A stretch of DNA of 32,000 nucleotides, from the NCBI GenBank assembly GCA_025340205.1, contig CP006868.1, positions 1,350,001-1,382,000 on the forward strand, read 5' to 3'. Numbering within the stretch: the first letter of the stretch is position 1; each line of letters starts with the position of its first letter. Below the pieces are notes generated by a model. That model saw only the letters and a list, made by a program, of their open reading frames with translations, had not been told where the DNA came from and ran no database searches. The translations under genes were made by a program, and so were the position numbers. Source of the DNA: Ignicoccus pacificus DSM 13166. GTDB taxonomy: Archaea; Thermoproteota; Thermoprotei_A; Sulfolobales; Ignicoccaceae. Below are positions 3,470 through 29,700 of this stretch, piece after piece.

Positions 3470-4977
3470 TGTTTGAGAGCCTTCAGCAAGGGCTCTTCGA
3501 TCTTCTCCAACATAGGTATGTAGTAGCCTATCCTCTCCCCGTCCAAGGTTATTACGGTGGCGTTCATCTCCATTCCAGCATGAGCGATGAAGTTTCTGGC
3601 ATCGGCCTCTTCTGCCTCCTTAGCGTAGTGGTAGGCCCACCAGAGGACGCTGTCTTGAAGCTCCTTCTTAGCGTGCTTCAGCAATGAGTAGGGGATTGCC
3701 TTTTGCGTTAACTTCAGGAGCTCCTCGAGGCCTTCCCTCACTTTCTCCGCTTCCACCTTGTTCAGCTTCCTCCTCAAATCCTCTTCGATGCTCTCGCACC
3801 CGGAAGGATATCCCTTCGCTATCTCCGCTATCCTCTCCCTCAGGTTGTCCAAGTTTATCTTCTTCAACTCCTTTAAAGACTCTGTAAGCTTGCTATTCTC
3901 CTCATTCCACAACTTCTCATCTACTCCGCGCAAGTAACCCTCCAGCTCCTCCAAGCTTTCTCTATTAACCAAATACAAATTCCCTTCTATTTCTCCCCTT
4001 TCCTTAACGATATCTAAGAACGTTCTCATGGCAATTAAATTGATTATTCCCTTTTCATCAAATACCACGTCTTGCCTTACCCTCTCTCCCTCTACCTCAT
4101 AATGCTCTAGCGCGTTGCTCGCAACCATCAGAAGGTCCCCCACCGCTTCTTCGAATTTCTCCTTGTTTCTGATTACTTTATCCATAACATATGCCCAGTA
4201 GAGGGGACTCGGTACCTCTAGCTTTACCATCTCGTTCGCCAGTTCGCTCAAGGTGCCCCTGTTCTGCAAGTAGGCCTCACACTTACCCTTGTCTATATTA
4301 TTCAAATCCTTCACGAACTCGCTAAGTTCTTGAAGGTTCGGTTCTATTTCCTTCACTTGGAACACGTGGTACCTCAGCTCGACATCTCGCAGCTCCTCCC
4401 CGCTCCCCACTATGGGGTCGCTCGCTCCAATAGCATACTTTATCTTCTTCCTCATGTCTATCGAAATTAGCTTTAAGATGTAGTTATCCAGCGCTTCTCT
4501 TATAGTAACTGGATAGTAGTTGACTCCGTGAGTTATGTCGAGGAGTATCGTTTCTTCGTTCGCCTCTCTCAGCTTTTCGTAGAGCTTCAGTATTATTCCA
4601 GAATACACGTTGCTGAAGGGTACGTCGAATTCCTTTAACACCTCGTTGCTCTTATACACGCCCGTGCTCGGAACGACTACCTTGTCCGCCTCCTCGAATA
4701 TCTTCAAGAATTCCTCATCCTTACTCTTCACTATTTCCCTCATCTTATCCAGAGCGAGGTCGTTTACGTTTCCCTTCCCGTCCGCTATGGAGGCGGGAAC
4801 CACTACCAGCTTCCTCCAGCTTTCGAAGAGGGAAAGGGGCGTGTAGGAATAAGCTTCCACCTTTAAGTTCTCCAATATTTCCTTAACCTTCTTAGGATCC
4901 TTCTCACTTACCTCATCCCTCACGTACTTTACCTTTTTCCAGAACCTAGGGTTGCCCCAAGGGGATATTACCAGCAT
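3466..4977 (-). CDS. csx1: Csx1-family CRISPR-associated CARF/DxTHG/HEPN ribonuclease (stand-alone)
   Basis: The N-terminus MLVISPWGNPRFWKKVKY is the typical Csx1 start. The DxTHG motif is LLDITHGVNY (DITHG at 4525..4539). The C-terminal HEPN motif R-x4-H is ARNFIAHAG (3580..3597). I start the gene at ATG 4977. The 59-codon upstream extension of the ORF-track entry overlaps the divergent methyltransferase gene and looks non-coding. Confidence 0.85.
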   Translation of the reverse strand: MLVISPWGNPRFWKKVKYVRDEVSEKDPKKVKEILENLKVEAYSYTPLSLFESWRKLVVVPASIADGKGNVNDLALDKMREIVKSKDEEFLKIFEEADKVVVPSTGVYKSNEVLKEFDVPFSNVYSGIILKLYEKLREANEETILLDITHGVNYYPVTIREALDNYILKLISIDMRKKIKYAIGASDPIVGSGEELRDVELRYHVFQVKEIEPNLQELSEFVKDLNNIDKGKCEAYLQNRGTLSELANEMVKLEVPSPLYWAYVMDKVIRNKEKFEEAVGDLLMVASNALEHYEVEGERVRQDVVFDEKGIINLIAMRTFLDIVKERGEIEGNLYLVNRESLEELEGYLRGVDEKLWNEENSKLTESLKELKKINLDNLRERIAEIAKGYPSGCESIEEDLRRKLNKVEAEKVREGLEELLKLTQKAIPYSLLKHAKKELQDSVLWWAYHYAKEAEEADARNFIAHAGMEMNATVITLDGERIGYYIPMLEKIEEPLLKALKH

Positions 4978-23905: not shown

Positions 23906-24592
23906 TTGAAGCTGAAGCTGGTCTTGGTAGAGCCGGAGGGAATGATAAACTTCGGATTCATCTTAAGGCTAAGTAAAAACTTCGAGGTGGATGAACTGGC
24001 AGTAGTGAGGCCCAAGTTCCAAGTGGATCACGAAGAAGTGCTTAGATTCGCCGCTCAAGGAAAGGATTACATAGAGAAGGTGAAGGTTTACGAGAGCTAT
24101 GAGGAGGCTCTGGAGGGAACCAAGGTCTGCACCTCGGCCAAGGTCTCCGGAACCGACACCGTCAGGGACTTCGTCCTCCCGTGGGAGCTGAAGGAGTACG
24201 TGGGGGAGCCGGAGGTCTTGAGCTTGGTCTTCGGAAGGGAAAGCGTTGGCTTGACCAGGGAAGAGTTGAGTAAGTGCGACCTCCTCCTTCACATCCCGGC
24301 ATCGAAGAACTATCCCGTTCTGAACTTGTCTCACGCCGTGGCAATTACGCTTTACGAGGTGTGGAAGCAGTACCGCTTGGAGAGGGGCAACTTGCCCCAG
24401 AAGCCCTCTGAGAAGGACTTGGAGGTGTTCATGAGGGTTGCTGGGGAACTAGCGGAGAGGTTCGTGGGGGATGAGGTGAAGAGAGAGAGGATACTGATAG
24501 GGGTAAAGAGGCTCATAAGCAAGGCGAGCAAGTCTGAGCTCAGAAGCTTGCTGTACTTGCTCAGCAGGTGCTCTAGCTTTCTGAAAGGCTAG
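23906..24592 (+). CDS. SpoU/TrmH-class RNA 2'-O-methyltransferase (TrmJ-like)
   Basis: SPOUT motifs are LVLVEPEGMINFGFILR, LVFGRESVGLTREEL, LLHIP and LNLSHAVAITLYE. It has a TTG start 9 nt after the hypA stop, preceded by GAGGTGG. Confidence 0.8.
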   Translation: MKLKLVLVEPEGMINFGFILRLSKNFEVDELAVVRPKFQVDHEEVLRFAAQGKDYIEKVKVYESYEEALEGTKVCTSAKVSGTDTVRDFVLPWELKEYVGEPEVLSLVFGRESVGLTREELSKCDLLLHIPASKNYPVLNLSHAVAITLYEVWKQYRLERGNLPQKPSEKDLEVFMRVAGELAERFVGDEVKRERILIGVKRLISKASKSELRSLLYLLSRCSSFLKG

Positions 24593-25683: not shown

Positions 25684-26544
25684 ATGAGGTTAGAGGTGCT
25701 GAGGGAGTTCGACCCTTGGAAGGGGGACCTATGCACTTGTCCCAAGAAGTACAGCCTCCAGCCCTATACCGGATGTTCGTTCATGTGCCTTTACTGCTAC
25801 GCCACCGCTTACATAGGGAGGAGGCCCTCTGAACCCAAGAAGAGGTTCCTGGAGAGGCTCGAGAGAGACTTGAGGAAGGCGGATAGGGAGAGGGTGGTAA
25901 ACCTCTCCACCTCCTCCGACCCTTATCCCATAATAGAAAAGAAGTACTTGCTCACCAGAAACGCCATAAGGCTCCTCTCGCTCCACGATTTCAAGATACT
26001 AATTACGACAAAGGGATCGTTAGTCGCTAGGGATAAGGATCTTCTGAGCAAGTCAAGGGCGGCAGTTATGATTACAATAACCACGCTGGACGCCTCCCTT
26101 GCTAGGGAAATAGAACCTGGAGCTCCCTCTCCTTTAGAGAGGCTTAAGGCATTGAAGGAGCTGAGCGAGGCTGGGGTTCCGGTAGGAATAAGGTTGGATC
26201 CTATAATACCGGGGGTTAACGATGACTCAAAGGAGCTCGAGGAGATCGTGTTTAGAGCCGCTGAGGCTGGAGCCAAACACGTGGTCACTTCTACCTACAA
26301 GGCGAAGCCGGATAACTTGAAGAGGATGACTGAAAAGTTCCCTCATTTAAAATCCTTGTACTCCAAAGGTGTTAAAGTTGGAAGGTACAAGTACTTACCC
26401 AAGGGGGTTCGAGAGAAGATGTTGAGGCCGGTAGTAAAGGCAGCCGAGGAGGTAGGAATGACGTGGGCCTTTTGCAGGGAAGGCTTTCCCTTCAAGGCAC
26501 CTTCTTGCGATGGTTCTCACCTAATTCCGAATAGAAAGCCTTGA
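25684..26544 (+). CDS. Radical SAM protein, SplB / 'DNA repair photolyase' (COG1533)-like
   Basis: The CxxxCxxC cluster is GCSFMCLYCYA near the N-terminus. It has a TIM-barrel-like alternating pattern. GGAGG lies upstream of the ATG. Size is 286 aa. Confidence 0.75.
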   Translation: MRLEVLREFDPWKGDLCTCPKKYSLQPYTGCSFMCLYCYATAYIGRRPSEPKKRFLERLERDLRKADRERVVNLSTSSDPYPIIEKKYLLTRNAIRLLSLHDFKILITTKGSLVARDKDLLSKSRAAVMITITTLDASLAREIEPGAPSPLERLKALKELSEAGVPVGIRLDPIIPGVNDDSKELEEIVFRAAEAGAKHVVTSTYKAKPDNLKRMTEKFPHLKSLYSKGVKVGRYKYLPKGVREKMLRPVVKAAEEVGMTWAFCREGFPFKAPSCDGSHLIPNRKP

Positions 26545-26547
26545 TCA

Positions 26548-26989
26548 TTACCTCTTCCCTTCGGGGAGTTCCATGCAGTCTTTCATCGTCTCAAGGCGAA
26601 ATCTATTATCGCTTTTGATCCTCAGCTCTTTATTCGCTCTCTTGTAATTATCCTTTAGATTATCTTTGCTATTTGCTTTGATTGAGCTTAAAGTGCTTGC
26701 AGCTTCACGCCTATGGGAACGTTCAATGTACCATTTCTTACCTTTCAATTGTCACATAATGACTAACCTTAAGCTTGCCCTTTGATGCTTCTGCCTTTAC
26801 GTTCATGGGAACAGTGAAGGATATGAGTAGTTTCTCCCAGAAGTGCGAAAAAGTAAGTTTGAGATTGATTGAATTGAAGGGAGAAAGCGATGTTAAGAGA
26901 GGATGGAACTGAAGGCTTGGAAGGGCAACAGAAGTCTCAATAGGGAATGGCAATGACCTTCTCCCAGCCCTAAAGAGCGGGGGTTCCAC
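26548..26989 (-). pseudogene. Possible decayed gene: two abutting short ORFs in different frames within an AT-rich gap
   Basis: ORFs 26738..26989 and 26548..26748 overlap by 11 nt in different frames, so together they read like one frameshifted gene (...GKLKVSHYVTIER / KGKKWYIERSHRRE...). The composition is AT-rich. I cannot assign a family. Confidence 0.25.
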
Positions 26990-27204
26990 TCAGAGCGGCA
27001 AAGTTTCAATTGAGAACCAAGAAGCAATTGCCCAAACACACTTACAATAGATAATAGAATCATAAAGATCTAAAGGGTATTTCAATATATAGAATATTCC
27101 TGAAAAGGTGATATTTCCGGATTACCACTAACCTTCCAGGGAAAGGAAGCTTGCTGCTGGTCTTGGGCCACCCCTCCTCCCAAGTGCTGAGGCTGTGGGA
27201 AATA

Positions 27205-28014
27205 ATGGACGTAAAGGCTATAATGCTCAACGCTTACATGCTGGCTAAATCAAAGAGAACTTACGAGAGGATAAGGAAAGTGGGCCTAAGGGAGTACTTC
27301 GGAATCCCGGAGGACGTTCAGATCTGGTTGGACTCCGGAGGCTATCAAGCAATGAGAAGGGGAGTAGCGCTCAAGCCGGAGCAAGTGATCAAGTGGTACA
27401 CGGAGCTCAAACCCGACTTCTGCATAGCCCTCGACAATCCCGTGCCTCCGAACGATCCAAAGCCCGAAGAGAAGGTCAAGAGGAACGTCAAGTGGGCCAA
27501 GGAAATGTACGGAAAGGTTCCGTGCACCCTCCTACCGGTATACCATCCCGTGAACGACGAGCTCTTTGAAGAGTACAGGAGCGGGTACTCGGAATTGGGA
27601 AGGTACGCAGCAGTAGGCGGCCTCATACCGAGGATACTCACCGTTAGAAATGCATCGAGAAAGGAGGGCTACAAGTTCTTGGTGAAGGTTAGGAAGGAGC
27701 ACAAGGGATGGCTCCACGCCTTAGGTTTAGGATCTGCTACGACTATTCCTATTCTCAAAGAGCTCGGCTACGACTCGACGGACACTCAAACTTGGAGGCA
27801 CAAGGCAGCCTATGGCAAGATAATGCTTCCGGGGAGGGGAGAGAGGCACATAACGGACAGGGAGGTTAGATTTGGAAGGAGAAAGATAAGCGAGGAGGAA
27901 GTGATAGAAGCAATGAGAATAGCGAAGAGGCTAGGCTTCAGCTGGGAGGAGCTGAAAAAAGACTTCGTGAAAAGGGCTATATTCAACGCCTACGTGCTTT
28001 CAAGCCTCACTTGA
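27205..28014 (+). CDS. Stand-alone tRNA-guanine-transglycosylase (TGT)-fold protein, DpdA-like, no zinc site
   Basis: The TGT hallmark WLDSGGYQ lies at 27331..27348. Further colinear blocks are FCIALDNP, AAVGGLIP and LHALGLGS...GYDSTDT. Only 2 Cys are present and no CxCxxC...H zinc motif. There is no PUA or C-terminal tRNA-binding domain. ATG 27205 is preferred over TTG 27151. Confidence 0.7.
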   Translation: MDVKAIMLNAYMLAKSKRTYERIRKVGLREYFGIPEDVQIWLDSGGYQAMRRGVALKPEQVIKWYTELKPDFCIALDNPVPPNDPKPEEKVKRNVKWAKEMYGKVPCTLLPVYHPVNDELFEEYRSGYSELGRYAAVGGLIPRILTVRNASRKEGYKFLVKVRKEHKGWLHALGLGSATTIPILKELGYDSTDTQTWRHKAAYGKIMLPGRGERHITDREVRFGRRKISEEEVIEAMRIAKRLGFSWEELKKDFVKRAIFNAYVLSSLT

Positions 28015-28842: not shown

Positions 28843-29340
28843 ATTTCTATTCATTACTGTGATTCCTCGCACTTGGCTACACACTTTTTGTTTTCGCTGT
28901 CGATTATCTTCTTTCCATTCACTCTTGTGACTCTTCTCGTTGCCCTATGAAGTGTCCAATCTGTAAGGTTGAAGCTTTCCATTCACTATTGTAACTCCTC
29001 AAGGAAAATTCCAAGAGCCCGTTCCCGGAATAATGTACCAAAACTTTCCATTCACTATTGTAACTCCTCCTTATTACATAATGAGGTGAAGCGTTATGGC
29101 CCACAAGAGCTTCTTTCCATTCACTATTGTAACTCTTCCCACTTCGTCTGGATACCGAAGTACAGAGGGAACGTTCTAGTCTTTCCATTCACTATTGTAA
29201 CTCTTCCCGTTGCCTTCAACTGGATGAGAAGCTCTTGGAGTCTTTCTTTCCATTCACTATTGTAACTCTTCTGAGGATGAGAAGAACGAAATTAGTGCGA
29301 GGGCGAAGGCGATACTTTCCATTCACTATTGTAACTCTTC
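28843..29340 (-). CRISPR. CRISPR array: 7 well-conserved 26-nt repeats plus 1 decayed repeat; spacers 38-43 nt
   Basis: The plus-strand consensus is CTTTCCATTCACTATTGTAACTCTTC. Repeats start at 28911 (2 mismatches), 28975 and 29044 (1 mismatch each), and 29113, 29181, 29246 and 29315 (all exact). A fossil repeat at 28843..28868 matches 19 of 26 positions and sits at the correct 68-nt spacing. On the minus strand the repeat ends ...GTGAATGGAAAG, like the ATTGAAAG 5'-handle end of crenarchaeal repeats. Mutated repeats lie at the left end, so I infer minus-strand transcription from a leader on the right. Confidence 0.95.
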
Positions 29341-29700
29341 CGTGACCCTCCTATTTAACTAGTTCTTCCATTAGCTAATAAGCCATTCCTTTCCCATTGC
29401 CTTGATTTGGTTACTTTATTAACTCTGAATACTTAAGCTTTCATGAGAACAGTTTTGCTCTACTTCCATCAATTAGAATTACCTAACTGAAACTAATAGT
29501 CAAACAAAAGAGTTCGTTATCATCGGTGTTCCCATGTATGTGACAATGGAAAGAATTGCTTAGCCTTTAAAATGAATTGAACTTTGAAGGTTCAAGAACG
29601 AATAGTGCTCAAGGTGAAGGGAAGAAAGAAGACCATAAACGTTCTGATATGTTCCCATGGAAAATAGGAAATGAAAAAGTAGGAAAGAGGTGATGGGGAT
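29341..29700 (-). promoter_or_regulatory. Probable CRISPR leader (AT-rich, non-coding)
   Basis: About 360 nt of AT-rich sequence with no ORF abuts the end of the array that carries perfect repeats. It contains TATA-like boxes, for example TTTAAAA at about 29566..29572. The extent is approximate. Confidence 0.4.

Follow-up and report, generated by a model that had tools for sequence, protein, structure and literature searches.

The gene considered here encodes a stand-alone protein of the tRNA-guanine transglycosylase (TGT) fold and lies on the forward strand of the chromosome of the archaeon Ignicoccus pacificus DSM 13166 (GenBank assembly GCA_025340205.1, contig CP006868.1). The stretch of DNA that was analysed, the window, is 32,000 nucleotides long and covers positions 1,350,001 to 1,382,000 of that contig. 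The genome consists of this single 1.685-Mb contig and is 99.9% complete. The protein belongs to a crenarchaeal family of zinc-less TGT-like proteins that is accompanied by archaeosine-forming enzymes and may mark DNA.

The Ignicoccus gene and its protein

An intact open reading frame (ORF) on the plus strand ends at 28014 and encodes a protein of TGT-fold type. The first-pass annotation placed the gene at 27205-28014 and gave it about 270 residues. The frame stands, but its start and length probably do not. The 18 residues read from a TTG at 27151 (MLLVLGHPSSQVLRLWEI) align with the conserved N-terminus of the family, KLxLGTPxxxxRPW, and with a same-genus orthologue (66% identity), beginning at residue 1 of the latter. 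The gene is therefore taken to span 27151-28014, and by this alignment the TTG is most likely the true start, giving 287 residues, rather than the ATG at 27205, which gives 269. A purine-rich GGAAAGGAAG stands immediately 5' of the TTG, and a TATA-like ATATATAG lies at about 27087, some 60 nucleotides 5' of it. The protein is a short variant that ends at position 297 of the family profile. A C-terminal helical tail of about 60-100 residues, present in Pyrodictiaceae relatives, is absent from it.

The protein matches the Pfam TGT family (PF01702) with 43.7 bits, where the gathering cut-off is 26.3, and the match covers positions 41-289 of the 357 in the profile. Its AlphaFold2 (AF2) model has a predicted local distance difference test (pLDDT) score of 91, and the best fold match in the PDB is ArcTGT (1j2b/1iq8; TMq 0.79-0.81, 8e-12 by Foldseek). 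Judged by profile score and predicted TIM-barrel fold, the protein is a member of the TGT superfamily, which bears out the earlier reading of a DSGG[FY]Q block and TGT barrel motifs. The positions of the motifs and of the other features are collected in Table 1.

Table 1. Coordinates of the TGT-like gene, its motifs and its neighbours in the window, followed by relevant genes elsewhere on the contig (contig coordinates)
Feature	Position	Strand	Remarks
Zinc-less TGT-fold (DpdA-like, arCOG00996-type) transglycosylase gene	27151..28014	+	ORF, Pfam TGT, family N-terminus, AF2 model
DSGGYQ motif	27331-27348	+	Asp is the predicted general acid/base; invariant in 20/20 family members
ALDNPV	27427-27444	+	Asp at 27433-27435 is the predicted base-recognition Asp, equivalent to ArcTGT/DpdA Asp130
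PVYHP	27535-27549	+	Invariant His at 27544-27546, where tRNA TGTs have Gln (PVQGG / GIIQGG)
DSTDTQTWRHKAAYGKIMLPGRGERH	27772-27849	+	Near-invariant block: predicted nucleophile Asp at 27781-27783 (DSTD), then family-specific basic hairpin
SplB/PA0069-like radical SAM gene	25684-26544		
CRISPR array	28910-29348		7 repeats
SpoU-family methyltransferase gene	23906-24592	+	228 aa; PF00588 92.6 bits; 2.5 kb upstream of the TGT-like gene
Canonical ArcTGT	about 872-874 kb		523 aa; TgtA model 328.9 bits; 505 kb from the TGT-like gene
QueC	849 kb		
FolE	1012 kb		
QueE-like radical SAM	1537 kb		
PTPS/QueD	418 kb		
RaSEA-like radical SAM fused to DUF5591	about 831812-833269		485 aa; PCSYRKPY; TIGR01210 87.5 bits; minus strand of locus L011 (1282-2739)
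Stand-alone DUF5591	about 843 kb		267 aa; PCSKVKPYRDS; 534 kb from the TGT-like gene, unlinked

The active site appears complete. Three catalytic aspartates, in DSGGYQ, LDNP and DSTD, are invariant in all 20 family members compared and align to those of ArcTGT, TGT and DpdA. The aspartate of DSGGYQ corresponds to Asp95 of Pyrococcus horikoshii ArcTGT and to Asp95 of bacterial DpdA in an alignment with ArcTGT, E. coli TGT and the DpdA of Pseudomonas phage Iggy, and the nucleophile corresponds to Asp249 of ArcTGT and Asp256 of DpdA. The LD.P motif is invariant across the family and aligns to FLDIP of 1iq8. The PVYHP motif aligns with PCFHF of Iggy DpdA, and its histidine aligns with a histidine of the bacterial DpdA structure 7ui4. 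His181 of bacterial DpdA touches the base (Gedara 2023, PMC10164549). By these alignments the histidine of the Ignicoccus protein is a DpdA-type signature.

What the protein lacks also agrees with the first-pass annotation, which had noted the absence of a zinc site and of tRNA-binding domains. Its only two cysteines (residues 91 and 125 of the 287-residue form) are not conserved in the family, and there is no CxCxxC...H. No C1, C2 or PUA domain follows the barrel, and the chain stops about 60 residues beyond it. The place of the zinc subdomain is taken by the basic hairpin in DSTDTQTWRHKAAYGKIMLPGRGERH. Alignments with ArcTGT end at this block, and the alignment with Iggy DpdA continues through it. 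The protein as a whole is net basic, with 50 Lys and Arg residues against 35 Asp and Glu.

The crenarchaeal family and its partner enzymes

A word-indexed search returned 71 relatives, all crenarchaeal apart from one labelled Nitrososphaeria and one labelled Njordarchaeales. An exhaustive profile search gave 126 cluster representatives at E < 1e-30, nearly all of them stand-alone proteins of 280-400 residues. Among these representatives, the fusion proteins of 479-717 residues were set aside as candidates; Pfam shows TGT alone in them, and their cluster names are uninformative. The family has 33 invariant positions, including D, S, G, G, Y and Q of the first motif, the LD.P aspartate, the PV.H histidine, the S.D(T/S) aspartate and the basic block WR.KA..GK...P..GE, and the window protein keeps all of them. 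On the family hidden Markov model (HMM) it scores 432 bits, and other members score 94-463.

The distribution was surveyed in 301 Thermoproteota genomes, with true members defined as matches above 90 bits in frames of about 290-400 residues. ArcTGT cross-matches (50-78 bits, frames of 500-600 residues) fall cleanly apart from these. True members are present in 3/3 genomes of the window's genus, in 5/5, 3/3, 20/20 and 11/11 genomes of four other families, the last two being Thermoproteales families, and in 7 of 11 genomes of a Sulfolobaceae-like family (f5). The matches listed for a large Nitrososphaeria-like group (f8) include no true member.

The family is related to both ArcTGT and DpdA. Against solved structures, its profile matches ArcTGT at 4e-11, bacterial DpdA (7UI4) at 2e-4 and bacterial TGT at 0.02. 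By tblastn against phage and virus genomes, relatives were found in the Sulfolobus viruses STSV1/2/4 (31% identity, 3e-26), in the rudiviruses SIRV4-11 (about 25%) and in the Iggy-type DpdA of Pseudomonas phage (26%, 1e-4). The family HMM scores the DpdA of STSV1/2 at 223 bits, that is, within the family, and the SIRV proteins at 95-101 bits. ArcTGTs match it at 42-76 bits over the first two thirds only, up to the nucleophile region. The match of Iggy DpdA, at 42.5 bits, covers the C-terminal half and runs across the block that stands in for the zinc subdomain. Among predicted viral structures, the top match is a TGT-like protein of a Sulfolobales rudivirus, followed by phage proteins of DpdA type including those of nt-1 (rank 3) and phiST.

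A maximum-likelihood tree of 56 rows (quick search, midpoint root) places ArcTGT and E. coli TGT in one clade (support 99) and the family in another (support 96), which also holds Iggy DpdA on a long branch. The window protein thus lies outside the clade of tRNA enzymes and groups with the viral 'DpdA' proteins of STSV1/2, SIRV and phage Iggy, a placement that the first-pass annotation had proposed to check. Within the family clade, the window's genus joins Pyrodictiaceae (95) and the two Thermoproteales families join each other (99). A third branch contains SIRV, and STSV nested within cellular Sulfolobaceae sequences (97). Since the tree mostly tracks taxonomy, it points to vertical inheritance, with members of the family probably captured by viruses. 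A further clade of metagenomic stand-alone TGT-like proteins of 340-410 residues (P0097, P0099, P0103, P0112, P0128 and P0160), with DSGG(Y/F)L, the histidine and WRLKA(A/G)(F/H)G, falls between the family and ArcTGT/TGT.

Existing protein models do not capture the family. On the TgtA equivalog TIGR00432, the window protein scores 42.9 bits against a cut-off of 350, and ArcTGTs of other genomes score 560-602. The bacterial DpdA models also fail, with 21.2 against 200 bits for NF041059 and 18.4 bits for PADLOC DpdA, and PF23859 matches neither the window protein nor the rest of the genome. The DpdA-like identity first assigned to the protein thus holds as kinship with the viral enzymes and as the DpdA-type histidine, and fails as membership in the bacterial DpdA family, whose models and zinc site are not found. 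A split-off N-terminal domain of ArcS was also rejected as an assignment. The window protein does not match the ArcS models NF040592 and NF053620 at E <= 0.1, nor does the Njordarchaeales member at E <= 0.01, whereas ArcTGTs match NF040592 at 63-214 bits.

The genome encodes a canonical ArcTGT, so the window protein is an extra paralogue. It also encodes a full preQ0 pathway (QueC, FolE, QueE-like and PTPS/QueD), and a supply of preQ0 is therefore available. Both sets of genes had been suggested as checks when the gene was first annotated. Searches of the genome found no QueF-like gene and no DpdC (PF03883), in a search that left out DpdB. DUF5591, the domain taken as a marker of archaeosine synthases, occurs in two further proteins of the genome (Table 1). 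PF17884 (DUF5591) was discarded as a marker of ArcS on its own, as it also strongly matches the C-terminal part of bona fide ArcTGTs (those with 560-602 bits on TgtA). Stand-alone DUF5591 proteins were instead recognised by frame size and the motif PC-X3-KPY. The ArcTGT copies of other Thermoproteota (loci L081-L086) have PQ/PxxxKPF in place of this motif.

The stand-alone DUF5591 protein of I. pacificus has its closest counterparts in an operonic protein of Njordarchaeales (141 bits, 35% identity) and in STSV2_16 (91 bits). Its similarity to the genome's own radical SAM fusion is much lower (48 bits), as is that to the C-terminal regions of ArcTGTs. The fusion is a candidate single-chain tRNA archaeosine synthase and is found in 3/3 genomes of the genus; fusion frames of 456-497 residues also occur in several other Thermoproteota.

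Neighbouring genes were clustered across 25 loci of the family. Beyond synteny within single families of organisms, the commonest neighbour is a DUF5591 protein of 180-280 residues. Its gene directly follows or overlaps the TGT-like gene in three Sulfolobaceae-like loci and in Njordarchaeales, and it is divergent or at most 2.5 kb away in four others. In STSV2, the TGT-like gene STSV2_15 overlaps STSV2_16 (DUF5591, 8e-20), and the pair adjoins genes for thymidylate synthase (thyX) and a DNA methyltransferase. In all, the TGT-like and DUF5591 genes form an operon in four loci and in STSV2. The two genes also occur together at the level of whole genomes. A stand-alone DUF5591 is present in 19/19 genomes of five families that bear the TGT-like gene, searches did not detect it in the four f5 genomes without that gene, and only three sampled genomes clearly have it without a TGT-like gene. 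The TGT-like and DUF5591 proteins may be physical partners.

Thermoproteales depart from this pattern: all 31 sampled genomes have the TGT-like gene and no stand-alone DUF5591. In Thermoproteaceae, a single QueF-like gene fills its place. In one genus, five genomes have it immediately 3' of the TGT-like gene in the same orientation, and in a sixth genome the two are adjacent but convergent; in a second genus it lies 3-10 kb from the TGT-like gene in most genomes. At one locus on the minus strand (L060:7667-8921), the TGT-like gene (317 aa) and the sole QueF-like gene (110 aa, with the active-site cysteine in AVCPVS) overlap by 32 nucleotides. The family is thus paired with stand-alone DUF5591 (ArcS2) in Sulfolobales, Desulfurococcales, Njordarchaeales and STSV, and with QueF-like in Thermoproteaceae. 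Coupling to two non-homologous amidinotransferases that convert preQ0 to archaeosine argues strongly that the substrate base would be preQ0 and the end product archaeosine-like.

A further association is with DNA-processing proteins. Five loci, belonging to three lineages, encode a HerA-like ATPase next to the TGT-like gene, and these HerA proteins match defence-type HerA/DndH models. One of the loci also has NurA and a BrxP/DndC-like PAPS-reductase protein; two continue with a 1020-residue ATPase and a 235-residue protein. In Sulfolobaceae (L064:7911-14839, plus strand; L067:2054-8783, minus strand), the order is TGT-like, DUF5591, HerA-like, 1020-residue ATPase and 235-residue protein, which corresponds to M164_0019-0014 of Sulfolobus islandicus. 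Transposon insertion sequencing in S. islandicus scored M164_0019 (arCOG00996, 294 aa) as essential with 1 insertion, and the overlapping M164_0018 (arCOG00995, 188 aa) as essential with 0 insertions (PMC6249222 supplement). The co-directional downstream genes for HerA, the large ATPase, the small protein and a NurA-like nuclease were non-essential, with 24, 17, 9 and 19 insertions (PMC6249222). Polarity cannot account for this pattern, which is what a nuclease coupled to a protective modification would be expected to give. The Sulfolobaceae operon was not equated with the BRC system (HerA, PglZ, DUF6079 and TGT; PMC12839542), since the main text of that paper names no crenarchaeal example and the match of the 1020-residue ATPase to BrxC/D is sub-threshold only.

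Possible functions of the enzyme

The most likely function of the window protein, to which we give an even chance, is the insertion of a 7-deazaguanine into DNA. The protein would be an active stand-alone zinc-less guanine transglycosylase of arCOG00996 (an assignment taken from the S. islandicus orthologue table) and kin of the 'DpdA' of STSV1/2. Catalysis would fall to the Asp triad, with the general acid/base in DSGGYQ, the base-recognition aspartate assisted by the histidine, and the nucleophile in DSTD. The enzyme would form a covalent ribosyl-enzyme intermediate as it takes guanine out of the nucleic acid, and it would put in preQ0 or some related 7-deazaguanine that the cell itself makes with FolE, QueD, QueE and QueC. 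The unlinked stand-alone DUF5591 protein, of ArcS2 type, would then turn the nitrile into an archaeosine-type group. DNA would be the likeliest target, as it is for the viral and bacterial DpdA enzymes. Since the genome has no HerA-NurA or other nuclease partner, the Ignicoccus module would not be a defence island but an orphan pair that marks DNA without restriction.

Viral precedents favour action on DNA. The DNA of STSV2 carries dCDG, and the virus encodes only this DpdA and a DUF5591-only 'ArcS2' (Cui et al. 2023, PMC10516641). In E. coli, plasmid DNA acquires dPreQ0 and subsequently dG+ through the DpdA2 and ArcS of phage nt-1 (PMC10516641).

Several points weigh against this proposal. 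The modification of STSV2 is low (0.04% of G), and the dCDG chemistry was unexpected by the authors (PMC10516641); for all members of the family, action on DNA is still something that we infer. Vertical inheritance, with 20/20 and 11/11 genomes in two Thermoproteales families, looks more like housekeeping than defence. QueF-like, with which the gene shares an operon in Thermoproteaceae, has been proven to synthesise archaeosine on tRNA (PMC5485725), and in Pyrodictiaceae the gene sits amid ordinary genes for FolE, a radical SAM protein and a SpoU methylase. The failure of the bacterial DpdA models and the absence of the zinc site that bacterial DpdA conserves count in the same direction, as does a genome in which no nuclease partner or DpdC, with DpdB left out of the search, marks a restriction-modification logic. 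The tree that groups the family with Iggy DpdA is a quick version with a midpoint root and places Iggy DpdA on a long branch.

The strongest rival, which we consider less likely, is that the enzyme acts on RNA. It could be a second tRNA- or RNA-guanine transglycosylase working at a site other than G15, or the base-holding subunit of a split ArcS-like enzyme that lets minimal synthases without a PUA domain (DUF5591/ArcS2 or QueF-like) act on preQ0-tRNA. Both recurrent partners are of archaeosine-synthase types, with QueF-like proven on tRNA, and the N-terminal and C1 domains of ArcS can be separately encoded (PMC10516641). The near-universal, vertical occurrence in Thermoproteales, Pyrodictiaceae and the window's genus and the preQ0-gene neighbourhoods of Pyrodictiaceae would suit such a role, and in genomes of family f7, which lack QueF-like, the stand-alone DUF5591 is the sole candidate synthase of archaeosine (G+). 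However, QueF-like makes G+ on tRNA without a TGT-like protein (PMC5485725), and the Ignicoccus genome already has its RaSEA-like radical SAM-DUF5591 fusion as a candidate tRNA G+ synthase. The protein lacks RNA-binding PUA and C2 domains and the zinc subdomain. A split ArcS is disfavoured by the missing ArcS-model match, unlike in ArcTGTs, and the invariance of three catalytic aspartates would be needless for mere base-holding. The viral members adjoin thyX and a DNA methyltransferase, and the Sulfolobus pair heads a HerA-NurA operon with a restriction-modification-like pattern of essentiality.

It is improbable that the substrate is no polymer at all and that the enzyme instead uses free nucleosides or nucleotides or serves in the salvage of 7-deazaguanine bases. 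Its minimal size without any accessory domain for nucleic-acid binding would be in keeping with such a role; ArcS of T. kodakarensis takes preQ0 nucleoside derivatives as minimal substrates (PMC11298593), and the rudivirus gene adjoins a permease-like gene. Yet all characterised enzymes of the TGT fold use a polynucleotide. The conserved, strongly basic hairpin in place of the zinc subdomain and the net basic charge of the protein speak for a polymer as well, and the association with the HerA/NurA DNA machinery points elsewhere.

The surroundings of the gene in the window suggested to the first-pass annotation a DNA-modification or defence function. The CRISPR array and the SplB-like gene are present as described, but their adjacency does not carry the meaning read into it. 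The other neighbours are a secreted protein and a Crn1-like CARF protein, and about 600 nucleotides without a convincing gene (26545-27150) separate the radical SAM gene from the TGT-like gene; tblastn with the neighbours of the same-genus copy found no orthologue in this interval. In the same-genus genome, the flanks are wholly different, and each flanking gene there maps elsewhere, at scattered places, in the window genome. None of the neighbours in the window, the radical SAM gene and CRISPR elements included, recurs beside the TGT-like gene in the 24 other loci analysed. A link to the SplB/PA0069-like radical SAM gene and to the CRISPR and Crn1-like genes was accordingly rejected. The SpoU methylase was likewise dropped as a conserved neighbour: it recurs only in the synteny of Pyrodictiaceae, as a different, TrmL-like protein with which the SpoU protein of the window does not cluster. 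We therefore regard it as very improbable that the protein is a component of a bacterial-type Dpd or defence island tied to the CRISPR array, the Crn1-like CARF gene and the SplB-like gene, although the genes are physically close and there is a weak PADLOC DpdA match (18 bits). Besides the unconserved flanks, the bacterial DpdA models are unmet, DpdC is absent, and the genome has no homologue of the large ATPase, the 235-residue protein or the NurA-like gene of Sulfolobus. Most improbable of all is a decaying or non-catalytic TGT relic, for although the protein is shorter than most relatives, without the helical tail, and its gene follows a gene-less gap, the frame is intact, the 33 invariant positions including the Asp triad are kept, orthologues of the same short length are intact and 66-81% identical, and the fold is predicted with high confidence.

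We also put forward a broader proposal, tentatively and with less than even confidence. Ignicoccus and most Thermoprotei (all sampled Thermoproteales, Pyrodictiaceae and part of Sulfolobaceae) might write an archaeosine-type 7-deazaguanine into their own chromosomes by means of a zinc-less transglycosylase and a minimal amidinotransferase (ArcS2 or QueF-like). In Ignicoccus, where a nuclease partner is missing, the mark would be an orphan one with an epigenetic or thermoprotective role and no part in defence, and Sulfolobus viruses would have captured their DpdA-ArcS2 pair from the cellular module. To our knowledge, 7-deazaguanine in DNA has been described in phages, in a few viruses of archaea and in bacterial Dpd islands, but in no archaeal chromosome. 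The only studied members of the family are viral enzymes linked to DNA modification, and the family itself is inherited vertically, is nearly universal in crenarchaea and is regularly accompanied by one or the other of two unrelated enzymes that form archaeosine. With DNA as the target, the genomes of many hyperthermophilic archaea would contain a positively charged base that has gone unrecognised, and this would matter for restriction, for conflicts between viruses and their hosts, for the stability of DNA at high temperature and for artefacts of sequencing. With RNA as the target, the enzyme would be a missing component or a second site of the crenarchaeal archaeosine pathway. Without a nuclease partner, the Ignicoccus copy makes for a clean case.

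Comparison with known systems

The viral DpdA/ArcS2 pair and the HerA/TGT 'BRC' system are already described. No description of the chromosomal crenarchaeal family or of its coupling to QueF-like was found in the searchable literature. The closest known relative is the DpdA of STSV1/2 (STSV2_15 and STSV1 ORF18), a zinc-less barrel of about 290 residues that belongs to the same family and has in common with the window protein the motifs DSGGYQ, LD.P, PV.H, S.D(T/S) and WR.KA..G...PG.GER. Like the Ignicoccus enzyme, STSV2 DpdA is partnered with a DUF5591-only protein. The Ignicoccus gene differs in being chromosomal and conserved in its genus, in being unlinked to its DUF5591 partner and in having only about 31% identity, at the level of the family, to the viral proteins. 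Its product is also extended at the N-terminus relative to the Sulfolobaceae and STSV forms. The rudivirus genes annotated as 'queuine tRNA-ribosyltransferase' (SIRV, SBRV1) belong to the same family as STSV DpdA. In rudivirus SIRV9, the TGT-like gene directly follows, on the plus strand, a gene for a 396-residue permease-like protein (AA_permease_2, sub-threshold; L069:2703-3893 and 3896-4798), and SIRV isolate V3 has these two genes annotated as well; the permease-like protein could serve to take up a 7-deazaguanine base.

Bacterial DpdA (Salmonella Montevideo, PDB 7UI4) has the same TIM-barrel TGT fold without tRNA-binding domains. Equivalents of its Asp95, Asp130 and Asp256 are kept in the window protein, and in both a histidine, not a glutamine, faces the base. 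A further likeness is the N-terminal lid region of TGT, which is unmatched in the window protein because the Pfam match begins at profile position 41. Unlike the window protein, bacterial DpdA has a large helical insertion and a CXCX2CX22H zinc site, which is conserved among the bacterial enzymes (PMC10164549). The bacterial system also differs from that of the window genome in that DpdA needs the ATPase DpdB, and DpdC makes dADG.

ArcTGT (TgtA; PDB 1IQ8/1J2B) is the best solved match by profile and by fold (TMq 0.8), and it has the same catalytic Asp triad and the GG(L/V)(I/V)P pocket loop. It differs from the window protein in its zinc site, its C1, C2 and PUA domains and the glutamine at the position of the histidine. 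The DpdA2 and DUF5591-only ArcS of Vibrio phage nt-1 follow the same two-part logic of a transglycosylase and a C1-only archaeosine synthase. That DpdA2, of 464 aa, falls in another DpdA subfamily of longer proteins and is carried by a phage of bacteria, whereas the Ignicoccus gene is part of an archaeal chromosome.

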